Below, one piece after another: positions 2,017 to 43,200 of a stretch of DNA of 56,586 bases. The stretch's first letter is position 1. Each line of letters begins with the position of its first letter. Made by a program: the position numbers and the translations under genes. The notes beneath the pieces are model-generated. The model made no database searches, was not told the origin of the DNA, and saw nothing but the letters and a program-made list of their open reading frames with translations. The DNA comes from a virus (taxonomy: Duplodnaviria; Caudoviricetes): positions 1 through 56,586 of IMG/VR virus record IMGVR_UViG_3300031565_000038. One strand, given 5' to 3'.

Positions 2017-2172
2017 CTACGTCAGTGCATTTTTCAAAGCCTGTGTTATCCAATAACGAACCATACCCGATTTATTGGAAGAGCCGAAAAACTCTTTCGA
2101 TACTTTTATCAAGTCTTGTTCTTCTTTTTCTGTAAGCGATAATGTAACCGCCTTTGTTTTTTCTTTTGCCAT
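2017..2172 (-). CDS. Small ribbon-helix-helix-like protein (51 aa, not in ORF track)
   Basis: MAKEKTKAVTLSLTEKEEQDLIKVSKEFFGSSNKSGMVRYWITQALKNALT; start overlaps the upstream stop. Confidence 0.6.
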   Translation of the reverse strand: MAKEKTKAVTLSLTEKEEQDLIKVSKEFFGSSNKSGMVRYWITQALKNALT

Positions 2173-2549
2173 TATTTTACGGTATTAATATCTACAGCTA
2201 AACCATCTTCTAACATTCCAAACACATCAAAATTATATTCAATAAGTCTTTTTACAACAACATAAGGTGCCCTATTATGCCAGTAAGCTCTTCCATATTC
2301 TAAATATTCATTATAGTAATATTCAAAGCTTGTAAAACCGAAAAAGTTATCTTTAAATACACCAATCTCACTACCAAAATCAACAGGTAATGTTTGCGTG
2401 TCTGTCAAAGGTCTTAAGATAGGTTTAAATCCTTTTTCTAAATGATAAGTTAAGTTTTCAGTTGTTAACTCTGTTTTCTTACCTACTGCATTTATAATAG
2501 ATAATGAGTGAGGCAAATAAGGTGCTACTTTTTCAAATTTAAGTTTCAT
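2172..2549 (-). CDS. Phage hypothetical protein
   Basis: ORF with PYLP..KPILRPL..FDVFG pattern; has its own promoter. Confidence 0.7.
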   Translation of the reverse strand: MKLKFEKVAPYLPHSLSIINAVGKKTELTTENLTYHLEKGFKPILRPLTDTQTLPVDFGSEIGVFKDNFFGFTSFEYYYNEYLEYGRAYWHNRAPYVVVKRLIEYNFDVFGMLEDGLAVDINTVK

Positions 2550-10222: not shown

Positions 10223-10507
10223 TTAAACGAGCGTCCCAGTTACATCAGCTTCAATTTTGAAAATTGCTTGTATTCTATTTTTTGAACCATCTTTTTCGCA
10301 TTCTGAAACAAACGATTCTAATTCAATATCTGAATTAATACCATAAGCTCCGTTTAAATCTAAATCACCATCGGTAATTACAATATACTTTGTATTTTCT
10401 CTCACCGAATTATCTCTAAATTTACACCCATTGTATTCCATTTTGATAAAAATTAACTGGCTATAACACACAATAAAAAATATATAGGCGTTTGTACTAT
10501 TATTCAA
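10223..10507 (-). CDS. Cassette hypothetical protein (likely start 10441)
   Basis: ORF. Confidence 0.6.
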   Translation of the reverse strand: MNNSTNAYIFFIVCYSQLIFIKMEYNGCKFRDNSVRENTKYIVITDGDLDLNGAYGINSDIELESFVSECEKDGSKNRIQAIFKIEADVTGTLV

Positions 10508-10664
10508 GGTTTGTGCCCCTCTTTGGCTTTTTTAAAGCCATTAGGTATTCACTACATATAAACTCAATCATTCCGCTAAAACTGCGTCTTTGTTTTGTAG
10601 CTTCTTTCTTAATCTCAGCGTTTATTTCGCTATCAATCGTTAAACTTTCTCTGTCCTTTGCCAT
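10500..10664 (-). CDS. Ribbon-helix-helix (CopG/Arc-like) regulator (54 aa, not in ORF track)
   Basis: MAKDRESLTIDSEINAEIKKEATKQRRSFSGMIEFICSEYL. Confidence 0.65.
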   Translation of the reverse strand: MAKDRESLTIDSEINAEIKKEATKQRRSFSGMIEFICSEYLMALKKPKRGTNLE

Positions 10665-10683
10665 AATTTTTTATATAAAAAAA

Positions 10684-11026
10684 GGGTTACCGATGCAGCC
10701 CTGTACAAAACATTGAGTTGGTCAATTAATACTCTTAGAAACTTTTACCAGGGGTTTAAAAGAACTTTGCTTTTTACATTTTAATCTTTAAAGCGTAAGA
10801 ACTTTTAATTTTAACCTTTTTGCTTTTAACTTTCAGCGTTAAACTTTTCAAGTTTTTGCAGTCTTATGCTCTAACCATCTGAGCTAATTCCCCGACTTTC
10901 GTCTGGCGGAGAATACTGGAATCGAACCAGCGACACTAAGAACCCATTGCATGTTAGTTTAGCAAACCGGTGCTTTTCTAACCCTCAAGCAGGGAATTGA
11001 ATTTATGTTTTTCGCATCGGTATTCC
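10684..11026 (-). ncRNA. Candidate structured ncRNA (about 340 nt)
   Basis: 9-bp closing stem (11014..11022 with 10688..10696) followed by a U-tract; embedded tRNA halves; 7-nt periodic A-rich tract; no long ORF. Confidence 0.65.
10855..10943 (-). tRNA. Circularly permuted tRNA-like element (3' half + CCA, GAC-GAAA-GUC linker, 5' half)
   Basis: 3' half UCUUA-GUGUC-GCUGG UUCGAUU CCAGU-AUUCUCC-G-CCA precedes 5' half GGGGAAU-UA-GCUC AGAUGGUUA GAGC-A-UAAGA-CUGCAAA; acceptor and anticodon stems pair between the halves. Confidence 0.75.
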
Positions 11027-11040
11027 TTTATTAGTTTTAA

Positions 11041-11709
11041 TTAAATTTCAATTACTGTTATTGCGTTAATTTCAGAAAGAACAGCGTCAACTTCTGTCTC
11101 AAATTCATTTACTTCATTTTGCAAATTCTCTGTAAGTTCTTCAACTTTCAAAGGGTCAACTAAATGAAATTCCTTACGCTTCACAAACGGCTCAACAATG
11201 TTTTTAACATCTTCATCGTTAGGTTTTACCCTATCATCACCTTGTTTGCCAATCATAATTTTAGCGTTCTCTAAAGCAACATTGTTTACTTTCTCATTTT
11301 CCTGAGTAAATTTTGCTTTTACTGCGTTGTGCTTTTGACTCAACCTTGCGATAAGGTTTTTCTTAACAGCTATTACAGTTTTAAAATTAATTGCATCTGC
11401 AATAGTCATTGTTTTTCCTCCAATTTTAACAATGGTCGTTCCGTTTGCTTTTACAATAGCTGATTTAATAGAGTTTTTACGCTCAATCAAATCTGAAACT
11501 GATTGAAACTTAGCCTTTACATCTTTCTCGAAATCATCTTTTGCGTAAAAACCATTAACAGGCTTATTCAATTGCATTAAACCAGTTGGCTCAACTACAT
11601 TAATAGCTTTTTCAATTCTTGCATCAATCAGTTTTAGTTCCGACAATGCTCGGTGAATAGTCATTTTTGTCTTTTCCATAATATTTAAAACTTTAAATGT
11701 TAAGTGCAA
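11041..11709 (-). CDS. Coiled-coil protein resembling DUF6847/DIP1984-type proteins (likely start 11679)
   Basis: MTIHRALSELK..., MTIADAI and C-terminal VDAVLSEINAITVIEI; family assignment from memory of the pattern. Confidence 0.6.
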   Translation of the reverse strand: MHLTFKVLNIMEKTKMTIHRALSELKLIDARIEKAINVVEPTGLMQLNKPVNGFYAKDDFEKDVKAKFQSVSDLIERKNSIKSAIVKANGTTIVKIGGKTMTIADAINFKTVIAVKKNLIARLSQKHNAVKAKFTQENEKVNNVALENAKIMIGKQGDDRVKPNDEDVKNIVEPFVKRKEFHLVDPLKVEELTENLQNEVNEFETEVDAVLSEINAITVIEI

Positions 11710-11736
11710 ATATATAGTATTATTTTATATTGTCAA
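11707..11736 (-). promoter_or_regulatory. Promoter
   Basis: TTGACA...TATATTTG. Confidence 0.7.
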
Positions 11737-11853
11737 GTATTATTAAGTATTTTTTTCAACAATATTTTTCCAACGCTCAAAATATTTTAACATTTATAAT
11801 CCTAATTAAATTCTGTGGTAACTTGATAAAAGCAACCGTATCATATTTAAACG

Positions 11854-12075
11854 TTATAACCCATTTTTACTTTTGTACAGTTCAATCAGTTCTGCAAAAG
11901 ATATTACAGGTACTCCAAAATCTCCTTCTTCTGCAAACCCATGTACTTCAATAAATTTTGTTGCTTCAATCACTTCTATTTTTGCTTCTTTAACAAGCCA
12001 TATCCAAAATGGGGTTATAACACTACCTATATGTAATGCCTTTCCGTTTTTATCAAATATTTCTAAGTTATCCAT
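11854..12075 (-). CDS. Cassette hypothetical protein
   Basis: ORF; start in loop, stop at crossover. Confidence 0.65.
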   Translation of the reverse strand: MDNLEIFDKNGKALHIGSVITPFWIWLVKEAKIEVIEATKFIEVHGFAEEGDFGVPVISFAELIELYKSKNGL

Positions 12076-13645: not shown

Positions 13646-13939
13646 CTACTTACTAAGCTCAATTAAGCAATTCTTTAGTATTTCAAACGCATCCTCTTGC
13701 GCTGCTTCTGTTGTGGAAAATCCAGCCCCACGCTCACTCGGTTCATGCAAGCTTTCTTCTAACACTTTCAATGCTTTTTCGGCAGCATCTTCTATTGCGT
13801 TATCCACACGCTCTTGCTCTTCAATTTCTTCCATAGCTATTCCATAACCTTCCCAGTTATCTACTCCAGCGCATTCCAACGCACGCATTTTAGATTCAAT
13901 CAACTCTAATTCTTTTAATCTACTTTTTGAAATTTCCAT
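13646..13939 (-). CDS. Cassette hypothetical protein
   Basis: ORF; LExAGVDNWEGY motif. Confidence 0.75.
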   Translation of the reverse strand: MEISKSRLKELELIESKMRALECAGVDNWEGYGIAMEEIEEQERVDNAIEDAAEKALKVLEESLHEPSERGAGFSTTEAAQEDAFEILKNCLIELSK

Positions 13940-40287: not shown

Positions 40288-43200
40288 ATAGCTTGTCCCT
40301 GTATGTTTGTGTAAAATTCCCCGTGCGCTTTCCTATCACTATTCCCCTTCTGTCTATTATTGGTATTTCCTTGTTTGTTATGGCTCTTTCTATTTTTTTA
40401 TTGCTTTCGATTAATTTACCCGTCATTATTTTTAATTCTATTGGATCATGCCCTGTTTGATTGATACCAGCCATTGCGACCAACTGTGGGTCTGTTATCT
40501 TTTTGAGCTCTGGGTTCGATGTTACCCTAGAGCCAGCCATGTCCGTGAACAGAGTTGGTTTTGTTGTCAGGTAGGATTTGCCCGACCTGTCCGTGGTGAT
40601 CTCCGCTTTTCCGTCCTCGGAGGTTACGAAGTTTGCTGGCGTTGAGAATTTTCCTTTTGTTCCAGTCTTGAATTTTTTTGATTTATTAAACAATGAAAAG
40701 ATGCTTGCAAATTGTAGAATCGTTGCAGCTATAAGTGGTATATTAAATGGAAATCCTTTTTTTGCGGCATTTGAAACAGCTACGGCTTGATTTGATTGTA
40801 TTATACCTAATGAGATAAGGTTTTCTCTTATTGCATCCGCCTTCTTGATTGCAAGGGCAATTTTACCAATAGCAGTTTCCTGACCGAATATAGCTATTGT
40901 TGCATCAAGTGTTGCAAATTTAGCAGCCCTTTTTGCTTCTTCTAAATCTTGTATTCTTTTAAGATCATCCGCTTCAAGTTGCGCTTTTTTGTCAAGAAAA
41001 TCCTGCGTAGCCTGTAATTTCGCTTCGTTTTCTTCCTCCAAGCCTTCTTCGATATCTTCTTCTACTGGGGCATCGATCTCTTCTGCAAGTTTATCAATAG
41101 CTTCAGCTATTTCTGACTTCTGCTTATCAATAATTGTTTGGCGTCTTGCAAATTCAACATCCCAAAGTCCAGCAAGTACAATTATTTTTTCTTGTTCAGA
41201 TAATATTGCAAAATCTTTACTTTTTTTAATTTGGTTTATTTCGTGTTCATAAATTTCCTCATCAGTAACTAGACCGTATTTCTTTTTTATTTTAAATACT
41301 TCTTCCTGTCTTTTAATTTCGCTTTTTATATCTTCAGCAAGCTTAAGTTCTGCCGCCAATTTATCTGCTTTTATTTTATCTTCTTCTGCTTTTTTTGCAA
41401 GTGCTTTTTCTTCTTCGATAGATTTTATTTCTTCTTTTCTTTTATTGATAAGAAACGTTCTGACAATACCTATTAATTTATTTCTAAGATTTGTTTCAGA
41501 AACAGAAAATTCATCAGAAAATGAAGAAATCAATTTATTCTCCTCCAACCCAGCTGATGTTAGTAATTCCAAGGTTAGTTTTTTTCTTTTTTTCAGATTA
41601 TCAATTGATATATTGTTCTGAATAGCCTCAACCTTAGTTAACTCCCTAAATGTTCCAAATGTAGTTTCACGACCAACACGTAATTCACCCTCTAATTTAC
41701 TTATCTCTTTTAGAGTTACAGCTAAATCAGATACTATCTTCGGAGTCGAAAGTTCTGTTAACTCATTAAGTATTTCCTGCTGTTTTGTCACAAAACCCTC
41801 TGCAAGACCAGTATTTATTCCTAGAACTTTTCCGTACTTATCAATTTCGGTCGCAGCAGAAGGGACTATTTTTACAATATCGCCTATAATTGTTTCAATT
41901 TCATCTTGTTGTTTTTTATTTGGCTCTCCTATTTCTAATAATTCAGTATATCTTGTTATCAAAATATCGAGTTTATCTCCATTTTCTTTTAAAGATATTT
42001 TTGTTTTTGCCATCGCAGTTGATAATTCAGAATTGAATTCATTCAACGTTGACAATGAACTTGCGCCTTTGTTTAGAACGCCTATAAATTTAGTAAACAG
42101 TTGAGTTGCACTTCTCAGGAACGGATTTAGCTTTGTTCCCAAATTGATAGCCAGACCTTCAAGTGCCGATCGTGCCTTGTCAGCATCGCCAACAAGGTTG
42201 TCACGCATAACATCTGCCATTCGTTTTGCAGCACCAGCAGCACCTTCGTATTTCTTTGTCAGCAGATCGCCCTCTCTTGCGTTGTCAGCCAATATAATTG
42301 CCGCTGTAGCACCACGTTTCCCGAACAGTTCCATTGCAGTTTTGTTCTTATCGGTGGCATTACGGATTTTCCCCATTGCTTCTTCCCATGTCAGCCCCTG
42401 TTTTGAAAGTTCAAGGAAAATATTCCTTAGCGAAGTTCCTGCTATCGAAGCTTCAAGGCCCCTATCGACCAACAAACTTAATGAAGCCGTTGCACGTTCA
42501 ACGGATACATCTGCATTTGTTGCAACAGGAGCAACCTTCGACATTGCGTTCTCGAACTTGGATATGTCCAGAGCCGAGCTTGCAAATGAAAGTGCCATTA
42601 CATCCGCTACCCTCGTTGTTTCTTTTGCGGTAAGCCCAAAACCTTTAACCGTTGCTGCGGCTACCGTGGCAGCCTGCCCTAAGTCTGCGTCAGCAGCGGT
42701 CGATAAATCCAATACCGCTGCTGTGGCATCGAGTATCTGCGTTGACGTGAAGCCTAATTTAGCAAGGTTTATTTCCAATTGTGCAACTTCGGAAGCTGTT
42801 TTTTCAGTCGATTCGCCAAGGTCTTGTGCAAGTTTTCTGAGTGAAATGAGTTCGCTTCCAGTTGCGCCAGATACAGCACCGACCTTGCTTATTTGCCTGT
42901 CAAAACCTGCAAATGTACGTATTGCGTTGCTTACGCCCCTTATAGCAGACCTTATGCCCAAATATGCACCAGCGGTTGCCACAAGTGTCGTAACCTGTGA
43001 TTTAAGTGCTTTTGTTAACCCACCACCTACACCGGTTGTTTTTTGCAGTTCTGTTTTTGTCATTTTTAACTGCTCCGTGTATTGTTTGAATTTTGCCCTG
43101 CTCTCGTCCGTTTCTCTCTGCTCCCTATTCCTCAGTGTATTGAGCGCTTTTATTTTGGCTTTGAGATCGTCAATTGATTTTCCTTGGTTGACAGCGTCTT

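Follow-up and report, generated by a model that had tools for sequence, protein, structure and literature searches.

What does a conserved noncoding block do directly behind the gene of a small helical protein in a tailed phage? This question is raised by positions 10,684 to 11,736 of the IMG/VR virus record IMGVR_UViG_3300031565_000038 (Duplodnaviria; Caudoviricetes), whose 56,586 bases, referred to here as the window, constitute a complete phage genome. At this locus, a gene for a 212-amino acid protein (11041..11679, minus strand) is followed on the same strand by a 341-nucleotide (nt) noncoding RNA (10684..11024). A first-pass annotation, made from the letters of the DNA alone, had proposed that the protein and the RNA form a single module, and this proposal is now strongly supported. 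Whether one starts from the gene or from the RNA, the other is almost always found beside it, in phages as well as in bacterial chromosomes, and the RNA is real, structured, and conserved. Together they probably form an RNA–protein particle of a kind that has not been described before.

The gene and the RNA occur together in phages and bacteria

We built a covariance model, R1, from the heptad arrays and the 3′ domain of the RNA (155 positions). Over the 56.6-kb window, R1 returned a single match at 10696..10852. Of 85 viral and phage sources, 83 had a match behind the gene in the same orientation; the two misses were L036, in which the contig ends at the gene, and L089. Sources outside model building gave the same picture, with 45 of 46 matched. 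In addition, 80 bacterial loci were found through the protein alone, using the profile of alignment A7, and none of them was included in R1; the RNA was matched in 79. Homologous genes without a downstream R1 match are rare, amounting to 2 of 85 viral and 1 of 80 bacterial loci.

The reverse test gave a similar result. Within one bacterial family, 121 whole genomes were scanned; the RNA is present in 22, the gene in 22, and both in 21, and in these 21 genomes the RNA lies 100 to 350 nt downstream of the gene on the same strand. A further genome, G394, has a weak partial protein match and no RNA. The module occurs twice on one very large phage contig of IMG/VR (349 kb), at sites separated by about 157 kb (L031 and L037), both of which are matched by R1.

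In phage T5, the RNA corresponds to the 357-nt gap after T5.085 (NC_005859, 43140..43496), and 440 T5-like records match the RNA. The region is without an RNA annotation in T5 and, among the 60 listed of these 440 records, in nearly all. The closest bacterial copy is found in a Tenacibaculum genome (78% identity), which suggests the clade of the phage host, and copies are present in other Bacteroidota assemblies too. In Lysinibacillus, Sporosarcina, and Solibacillus, the module is carried by many species as one copy at a conserved chromosomal site; the upstream flank is common to 17 Lysinibacillus loci, and both flanks are common to seven Sporosarcina loci. Between genera, the bacterial neighbors vary and include a major facilitator superfamily transporter, AhpC-like, DinB, and LytS-type kinase genes, methyltransferases, and one insertion sequence element. 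These ordinary and changing neighbors indicate that the gene and the RNA are a self-contained unit that also lives outside phages.

The RNA has a conserved and covarying architecture

The downstream block is conserved in eight related IMG/VR loci even at 47 to 50% protein identity, and the sequence of its closing stem differs among these loci while complementarity is kept. Four annotated phages of unrelated groups likewise have an unannotated gap of 380 to 445 nt after the gene in which the same RNA features are visible. Altogether, 39 nonredundant RNAs of 230 to 460 nt share a conserved architecture. Read from the 5′ end, this begins with the closing helix P1, a GAAA motif, an H-type pseudoknot (a CCC/GGG stem 1 and a loop-to-downstream stem 2), and a variable slot; it continues with seven heptads, UUCUUA, four heptads, UUCnnUnAAAYCC, helix Pz with its hairpin, CUG, and the 3′ strand of P1. 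No family for the 341-nt RNA is present in Rfam 15, where the sole match is a subthreshold hit of YrlA to the tRNA-like insert, and no minus-strand open reading frame (ORF) of at least 40 amino acids occurs between 10665 and 11040.

In the window, all of these elements lie on the minus strand, and the closing helix starts 16 nt past the stop codon. The 5′ strand of P1 is located at 11014..11024, forms nine base pairs (11014..11022 with 10688..10696), and is followed by the conserved GAAA motif at 11007..11013. The pseudoknot, as read from the sequence, spans 10971..10994, with S1 formed by 10992..10994 and 10982..10984 and S2 by 10987..10991 and 10971..10975. A small hairpin, P3, seen in the sequence and in alignment A2, opens the variable slot at 10956..10968; its stem carries compensatory changes among L001–L004 and L008, as read in that alignment. 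The slot holds a permuted tRNA-like insert (10855..10941). Next comes heptad array A, with seven nUnAAag units recognized by periodicity and conservation (10802..10849), the linker UUCUUAC-GC (10793..10801), heptad array B, with four units seen in the sequence and the alignment (10765..10792), and the element UUCUUUUAAA (10755..10764). The 3′ domain, defined by covariation, occupies 10696..10753 and is composed of helix Pz (10749..10753 with 10699..10703) around an inner hairpin (10715..10734), from which CUG leads into P1. Finally, the P1 3′ strand (10688..10696), ACCC, and seven U residues (10677..10683) make up 10677..10696, the likely 3′ end or terminator as judged from the sequence. The 9-bp stem and U-tract that had been described as closing the noncoding block are thus present; a simple terminator scan misses them because the intervening "loop" is about 320 nt long.

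Helix P1 was examined with a self-written descriptor that calls for a stem of at least 8 bp with its 3′ strand following GGCUG and does not impose (C/U)GAAA. It matched 76 of 92 downstream regions, compared with 9 of 460 shuffles and none of the 92 antisense sequences, and (C/U)GAAA follows the P1 5′ strand in most members. In an alignment of 38 nonredundant RNAs and the window, 91.2% of P1 cells are paired, as against 57.8% in shuffles and 27 to 46% when the strands are slid. Compensatory change is found at 10 of 11 pairs, which bears out the predicted covariation of the closing stem, and the G-U pairs of P1 are compatible with the minus (gene) strand only.

The 3′ domain gave comparable results. 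For Pz and the inner hairpin, 92.9% of cells are paired, compared with 65.6% in shuffles, compensatory changes are seen at eight of nine pairs, and the covariation score was reached by 0 of 500 shuffles. RNAalifold shows two Pz pairs that each use four Watson–Crick pair types. A column-pair covariation scan of the MAFFT alignment A5 recovered Pz only, and the inner hairpin needed a model-based alignment. The pseudoknot was detected by a position-restricted descriptor, also self-written, in 23 of 39 RNAs versus 55 of 780 shuffles, and 22 distinct sequences of S2 are represented; the pseudoknot of the window falls just under the 5-bp S2 rule of this descriptor. The position-restricted version replaced an earlier pseudoknot finder that was too permissive (31 of 39 RNAs versus 55 of 195 shuffles).

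Eleven unpaired heptads keep their number and register

The first-pass annotation had noted about ten units of roughly 7 nt in this block. The repeats are real and better ordered than had been claimed, with seven units at 10802..10849 and four at 10765..10792. Self-identity at a lag of 7 over 10757..10856 is 0.527, compared with 0.335 ± 0.044 in shuffles, a value reached by 0 of 5000 shuffles and, at any lag from 2 to 20, by 0 of 2000; it is the highest lag-7 identity of any 100-nt window in the whole 56.6 kb. Tandem Repeats Finder reported a period-14 array only (score 47). Each array terminates in a UUCUU element, and the heptads are predicted by RNAalifold to be unpaired in the consensus fold.

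Conservation within the units is concentrated at three positions. Across 58 RNAs, U2 reaches 0.97 to 0.98 in all but one of the seven array A units, and for each heptad unit A4 lies at 0.98 to 1.00 and A5 at 0.74 to 0.98. The retention of U2, A4, and A5 in every unit predicted to be unpaired fits repeated binding sites. Alignment A5 shows the same count of 7 + 4 units throughout, a few members differing by inserted hairpins, and the distance from the first heptad to GGCUG is 147 to 167 nt in 33 of 39 RNAs; unit number and register are therefore fixed. A member from a GC-rich lineage keeps the 7-nt period and changes the last heptad positions while U..A is retained. This member led us to set aside two readings of AAAG, as a sponge for the tRNA-Lys anticodon and as a sponge for the anti-Shine–Dalgarno sequence. 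The tail of Escherichia coli 16S rRNA presumably would not pair with AAAG heptads either.

The exposed arrays raise the question of who reads them. As a sponge or decoy, the eleven heptads would titrate a host single-stranded RNA-binding protein or endoribonuclease, and the encoded protein would only assist, for instance in the protection or loading of the RNA, or would act separately. Such a role is compatible with the conservation of unpaired arrays across hosts of the Enterobacteria, Bacillota, Bacteroidota, and a GC-rich lineage, with the persistence of the RNA beside a truncated or missing gene in 3 of 22 genomes, and with the unit junction (..AG then nU..), which is similar to the preference of RNase E and RNase Y. 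However, a sponge would not need a private protein gene, which is present in 21 of 22 genomes, and a decoy directed against the cell's own enzyme is hard to reconcile with a module kept at one chromosomal site across species. Moreover, the invariant A4 and A5 fall outside this nuclease motif. We therefore regard the sponge as rather unlikely. Direct binding of the arrays by several copies of the partner protein, giving a particle of defined size, is in our view fairly likely.

The probable partner is a widespread helical protein with a conserved head

The protein matches PHROGs family phrog_1491 over its full length (E = 1.3e-56; residues 13–222 of the 222-amino acid ORF as listed). The family is large, with 2329 clusters at 50% identity matching at E ≤ 0.001, almost all of 205 to 212 amino acids. 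By tblastn, it is present in 763 phage records, including T5-like Salmonella and Escherichia phages, Bastille-like Bacillus phages, Pseudomonas, Vibrio, Erwinia, and Lactococcus phages, and others. The T5 homologue is T5.085, which is annotated there and represents the homologous gene position in T5-like phages. An ESM Atlas look-up returned nothing useful for the protein.

An AlphaFold2 model based on 72 relatives (predicted local distance difference test score 95.4) shows a stalk of long helices and a small sheet to which the N terminus, a hairpin (residues 83–92), and the C terminus contribute. The invariant residues Leu12, Lys72, Asn79, and Asn205, as well as the near-invariant motifs, map to the segments of this sheet, the "head." The window protein carries a net charge of +12 over residues 1–145 and −10 over residues 179–212, and the combination of a basic region at residues 1–145 and a strongly acidic last helix is also seen family-wide. 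A four-copy homo-oligomer prediction (alignment A3) scored 0.41 against a mark of 0.42 and was used neither for nor against the proposed particle.

The sole clear structural relative is Protein Data Bank entry 3kdq, a Corynebacterium diphtheriae protein of unknown function. It is the top Foldseek match (probability 1.00, E = 3.9e-3), and VIA-align gives Z = 11.2 with a root mean square deviation of 8.3 over 151 of 152 residues, the next entry reaching Z = 7.6. As helical folds score high easily, we take this match as supportive and not as proof. The family profile also matches 3kdq (E = 0.026), and weak matches to PF20935 (DUF6847) and NF038048 (DIP1984) are seen in 9 and 10 of the 72 relatives, respectively (best E = 1.8e-4 and 3.1e-4). 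The window protein itself matches nothing in Pfam or NCBIfam, including PF20935 and NF038048. Membership in DIP1984/DUF6847 was thus rejected, with the window protein below both curated cut-offs and without a profile match. The resemblance to DUF6847/DIP1984 suggested by the first-pass annotation holds as kinship, through the 3kdq fold and the weak profile matches of relatives, and fails as membership; the window protein is a real but distant relative by fold and profile. It shares the fold of 3kdq and is about 60 residues longer.

RefSeq copies of the protein (e.g. NC_027355, NC_028805, and NC_048828; T5.085) are labeled "tail fiber protein," whereas the GenBank originals read "hypothetical protein." The label, which matches the name of phrog_1491, seems to have spread through annotation transfer. 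In the window, the gene sits in the early/replication half, 20 kb from the tail genes; in other phages it adjoins tRNA islands, and in bacterial chromosomes it stands alone without phage genes. This gene position and the bacterial copies make the label doubtful, no structural evidence for a tail-fiber role was found, and the label as carried by annotation pipelines appears unfounded.

A toxin-like role of the protein has to be weighed at this point. In a toxin–antitoxin-like, exclusion, or abortive-infection pair following type III logic, the repeat RNA would neutralize a harmful protein. The two-part, self-contained unit, found in phages and chromosomes among changing neighbors, has a distribution typical of such modules, and two genomes hold the RNA beside a truncated gene. 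On the other hand, PADLOC detected no known toxin or defense family among 72 members of the family (none was matched by more than two members), no Pfam, NCBIfam, or PADLOC match to the ToxN/AbiQ, CptN, or TenpN toxin families was found, and the fold is helical and DIP1984-like rather than that of a ToxN-like nuclease. The repeat unit measures 7 nt and is placed downstream within a large scaffold, unlike the upstream tandem repeats of 34 to 36 nt in type III systems, and the neighbors are not defense genes. We consider this role distinctly improbable, and the analogy to type III toxin–antitoxin RNA drawn by the first-pass annotation fails on the defining features of toxin family, repeat length, and RNA position.

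Genes of DIP1984 proper are also followed by an RNA-like element

Genes above the DIP1984 family cut-off were found in 15 of 301 sampled genomes of the same phylum (Bacillota; loci L175–L190). R1 gave no match beside DIP1984-proper genes at E ≤ 1 (0 of 17 loci). Nevertheless, an ORF-free stretch of 200 to 660 nt follows the gene at 13 of 15 loci, and ten aligned regions about 0 to 300 nt downstream share a common conserved element with a G-rich 3′ motif, which has no match in Rfam. For nine of these elements, the RNAalifold consensus is closed by a predicted long-range helix of 17 pairs, 14 of which have at least two Watson–Crick types. DIP1984 proper is therefore likewise trailed by a conserved RNA-like element with a long-range closing helix, although this element differs in sequence and is without heptad arrays. 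From this small sample, it seems that the DIP1984 superfamily as a whole may be characterized by RNA partners.

The variable slot accepts tRNA-like domains, and the 3′ end varies

The permuted tRNA noted in the block by the first-pass annotation was found at 10855..10941. Its features are an acceptor stem of 7 bp, an encoded GCCA, canonical D and T arms, and a split anticodon stem. Its order runs from the 3′ strand of the anticodon stem through the variable loop, the T arm, the acceptor 3′ strand, and GCCA to a 10-nt linker hairpin (10894..10903), followed by the acceptor 5′ strand, the D arm, the anticodon-stem 5′ strand, and a 7-nt loop. The slot is occupied differently in other members. Some relatives have a closed acceptor-like stem without CCA, as most YrlA RNAs do, L002 and L047 have a different permuted tRNA-like domain, L079 has a normal tRNA (58.9 bits), and the slot is empty in L005, L008, L018, and the bacterial copies. 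Even the closest relatives do not retain the encoded CCA and G3-U70.

The best Rfam match of the insert is YrlA (RF02553; 33.4 bits, E = 4.7e-05, gathering score 69), and YrlA is also the best match in L007 (48.2 bits), L003 (37.8), L004 (35.0), L026 (36.7), and L024 (32.7). These matches, together with an end-to-end helix and a CGAA-containing motif by the 5′ strand that resembles GNCGAAN0-1G of PMC4201824, would suit a YrlA-type Y RNA working with host Ro60/Rsr. Every match, however, is below the gathering score, the tRNA-like part is absent in many members, and the outer stem of the YrlA alignment differs from the stem supported by comparison. Moreover, a search for TROVE genes gave no match in the phage or in five of five module-carrying bacterial genomes, while the controls were detected. 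The Y RNA reading is thus largely refuted, and we assign it only a minimal probability.

tRNA genes are frequent around the viral module. They occur in the flanks of 1.5 to 2.5 kb at 20 of 53 viral loci, on the strand of the module in all but one of these, and were found in the flanks of 0 of 15 bacterial loci. Within L028, a permuted transfer-messenger RNA (tmRNA) at 977–1357 (+; 59.6 bits, gathering score 47) lies directly upstream of the module gene and is preceded by five tRNA genes; in L026, a one-piece tmRNA match at 1025–1432 (+; 45.1 bits, just below 47) has the same position. T5 (L093, NC_005859) also has rnaX, annotated as "stable RNA with unknown functions," at 40848..41566, about 1.6 kb downstream of the module and separate from it.

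This setting recalls the ROOL and GOLLD RNAs and thus the possibility that the RNA multimerizes or acts alone, with the protein merely coexpressed. The RNA is indeed phage-borne, frequent in tRNA islands (20 of 53 viral loci), and able to hold a tRNA (L079). Yet the ROOL and GOLLD Rfam models give no match within 10400..11900 up to E = 10, and the pairing of gene and RNA is near absolute here, whereas ROOL and GOLLD have no dedicated protein gene according to PMC12286853. An RNA-only assembly is accordingly very improbable.

The 3′ end of the RNA is also variable in kind. After P1, there is a U-tract in the window and its close kin, and a tRNA gene begins within 10 nt in L029, L039, L056, and L058. 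In L038, a twister-P1 match (2496–2557, +; 41.3 bits, gathering score 67.2, E = 1.3e-5) begins one base after the RNA (2150..2495); as a lead only, this match may represent a self-cleaving 3′-end device. Such varied devices at one 3′ end argue for a discrete, released RNA. They also bear on another reading of the locus, in which the structure is a cis-acting 3′ untranslated region that only terminates the upstream mRNA or controls its stability or translation. The start of the RNA 16 nt past the stop codon, its end in a stem and U-tract, and the absence of a convincing promoter between the gene and the RNA agree with this. However, a pseudoknot, eleven heptads conserved in register, and a tRNA-like insert would be superfluous for a terminator or stabilizer, and 3′ ends made by tRNA processing or by a ribozyme-like element in relatives point to a released RNA, so that we give a purely cis-acting role very little credence.

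A model for the gene–RNA module

Our favored reading is that the 212-amino acid protein and the 341-nt RNA would act as one self-contained module. The mRNA of the protein would include the RNA as its 3′ portion, as suggested by the 16-nt spacer and the lack of a convincing internal promoter, and the RNA would end at the closing helix and U-tract or, in relatives, at a tRNA or ribozyme-like element. P1, the pseudoknot, and Pz would provide a scaffold that holds two single-stranded arrays of seven and four heptads (nUnAAag). Each U..AA core could then accommodate one conserved, basic protein head, which would result in a particle of fixed size. The variable slot can hold a real tRNA or a tRNA-like domain, which may stabilize the RNA or attract enzymes of tRNA processing. 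The tRNA/tmRNA-island setting and the tRNA-like inserts point to translation or to a tRNA-directed conflict with the host, and our guess is that, early in infection, the module acts on the metabolism of host RNA or tRNA.

Several observations weigh against this reading. The contact between protein and RNA is an inference, and a host protein or nuclease might just as well recognize the heptad cores. The RNA can also persist without an intact partner: no gene was detected in G319, which carries the RNA; in G386 and G412, the RNA is intact and the adjacent gene is matched over its C-terminal part only; and in G305, another contig holds a second, weaker RNA match (E = 4.4e-5) and no gene match. 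In addition, the viral counts are not fully independent because many loci are close kin, and the P1 pair counts lean toward pairing because the rows were picked with the stem descriptor. The single-sequence fold of the window RNA is undistinguished as well (z = −1.69; 7 of 100 shuffles equal it).

A broader reading joins the two branches of the superfamily. All DIP1984/DUF6847 proteins would be partnered with RNA, each branch with its own RNA closed by a long-range helix, the 7 + 4 phage arrays would template an assembly of a defined number of protein copies, and the particle would act during infection on translation or on tRNA-directed host defense. Taken as a whole, this proposal is tentative, and we are somewhat more inclined to doubt it than to accept it. 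If true, it would define a new class of RNA–protein particles common to T5-like, rV5-like, and Bastille-like phages and many uncultured phages, and the module would have been domesticated in Lysinibacillus, Sporosarcina, and Solibacillus.

Position of the module in the phage genome

Nearly every gene of the 56.6-kb phage is on the minus strand, with the structural genes at about 31 to 55 kb and the early, recombination, and replication genes at about 0 to 30 kb; the 212-amino acid gene and its RNA lie within the early half. The ORF of about 212 amino acids reported earlier is present. As listed, it extends over 11041..11709 (−; 222 amino acids) from a TTG start at 11709, and the ATG at 11679 (212 amino acids) is the likely start because homologues are mostly of 207 to 212 amino acids.

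The promoter noted upstream of the gene is likewise in place on the minus strand. This promoter-like site (11707..11736) consists of TTGACA at 11731..11736 and TATATTTG at 11707..11714, and it has 11 of 12 matches to a sigma-70-type consensus in our scan, its function being predicted from the motif. The region contains four promoter-like sites, no excess over shuffles (mean 5.8). The second box, TATATTTG, is also compatible with TAnnTTTG, the −7 motif of Bacteroidota.

A 54-amino acid ORF (10500..10664, −) begins 13 nt past the U-tract, and similar ORFs follow the RNA in L001, L003, and L005. It has no family in PHROGs and what is presumably a ribbon-helix-helix-like appearance. In addition, a 97-amino acid ORF (13646..13939, −) matches PHROG families of host RecBCD nuclease inhibitors (phrog_6234, E = 8.5e-12) and shares the early region with NinB-, NinG-, and RecE-like genes.

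Comparison with known systems

The RNA fails the defining tests of YrlA, type III toxin–antitoxin systems, tmRNA, ROOL, and GOLLD. In the full-text literature that we searched, which excludes subscription journals and supplements, there is no description of the RNA, of T5.085, or of a DIP1984/DUF6847 function, and T5.085 and YP_006913 are named in no paper of that literature. If our reading is true, a large and widespread family of structured RNAs with its own protein has remained unannotated even in the model phage T5, and DIP1984/DUF6847, which has a solved structure (3kdq) and no function, would gain its first functional handle. T5 with E. coli K-12 offers a fully tractable system for testing the module.

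Type III toxin–antitoxin systems (ToxIN, CptIN, and TenpIN) also combine, in one operon, a protein with a repeat RNA as its presumed ligand, are self-contained, and occur in phages and chromosomes, and additionally on plasmids. In type III systems, the toxin gene is preceded by tandem antitoxin repeats of about 35 nt each, whereas the repeats described here are downstream, 7 nt long, and embedded in a scaffold. A further comparison is with the RNAs read by oligomeric proteins that recognize spaced short motifs: TRAP binds 11 triplets, HutP reads UAG every 7 nt, and CsrA acts with CsrB/RsmZ. Short conserved cores, fixed spacing, and unpaired RNA are common to these and to the heptad arrays, and the fixed heptad count suggests a defined oligomer. 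However, there is no sequence or fold kinship with TRAP, HutP, or CsrA, and their RNAs are leaders or sponges, whereas the new RNA has its own scaffold and partner gene.

The two-piece (permuted) tmRNA shares with the window RNA a permuted tRNA-like part, an encoded CCA, G3-U70, and pseudoknots nearby. As a candidate, tmRNA was rejected: ARAGORN found no tRNA and no tmRNA gene in the whole window, and the tmRNA_permuted and beta_tmRNA models scored 12.6 bits (gathering score 47) and 13.3 bits, respectively. Furthermore, the tRNA-like part of the new RNA is dispensable and there is no tag reading frame; with a 7-nt period, no conserved tag frame could be kept.

YrlA and Ro60 have in common with the module a terminal helix, the order of T arm, acceptor, and D arm in the tRNA-like part, a CGAA-type motif, a nearby dedicated protein gene, and occurrence in phages. 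The tRNA-like module of YrlA has a closed or CCA-bearing acceptor stem, as in the new family. In YrlA, however, there is no counterpart to the heptad arrays, the pseudoknot, or the Pz domain, and in the new RNA the tRNA-like module is optional. Likewise, Ro60 is a ring-shaped TROVE protein, whereas the partner here is a helical DIP1984-like protein. The 5′ motif of bacterial YrlA RNA is GNCGAAN0-1G (PMC4201824); the T5-like RNA fits it fully, and in the window another base stands where the first G is required. The supplementary tables of that paper list 22 phages with YrlA, which may overlap with the RNA family.

ROOL and GOLLD are likewise phage or prophage RNAs of unknown function that are found in tRNA islands and have pseudoknots and a tRNA in a variable region; for GOLLD, tRNAs are reported in the linker (PMC12286853). 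They are about 580 and more than 800 nt long, compared with 230 to 460 nt for the new RNA, and the heptad arrays and the tie to a protein gene are features of the latter. If our reading is true, the module would represent a third, protein-linked class beside ROOL and GOLLD in phage tRNA islands.

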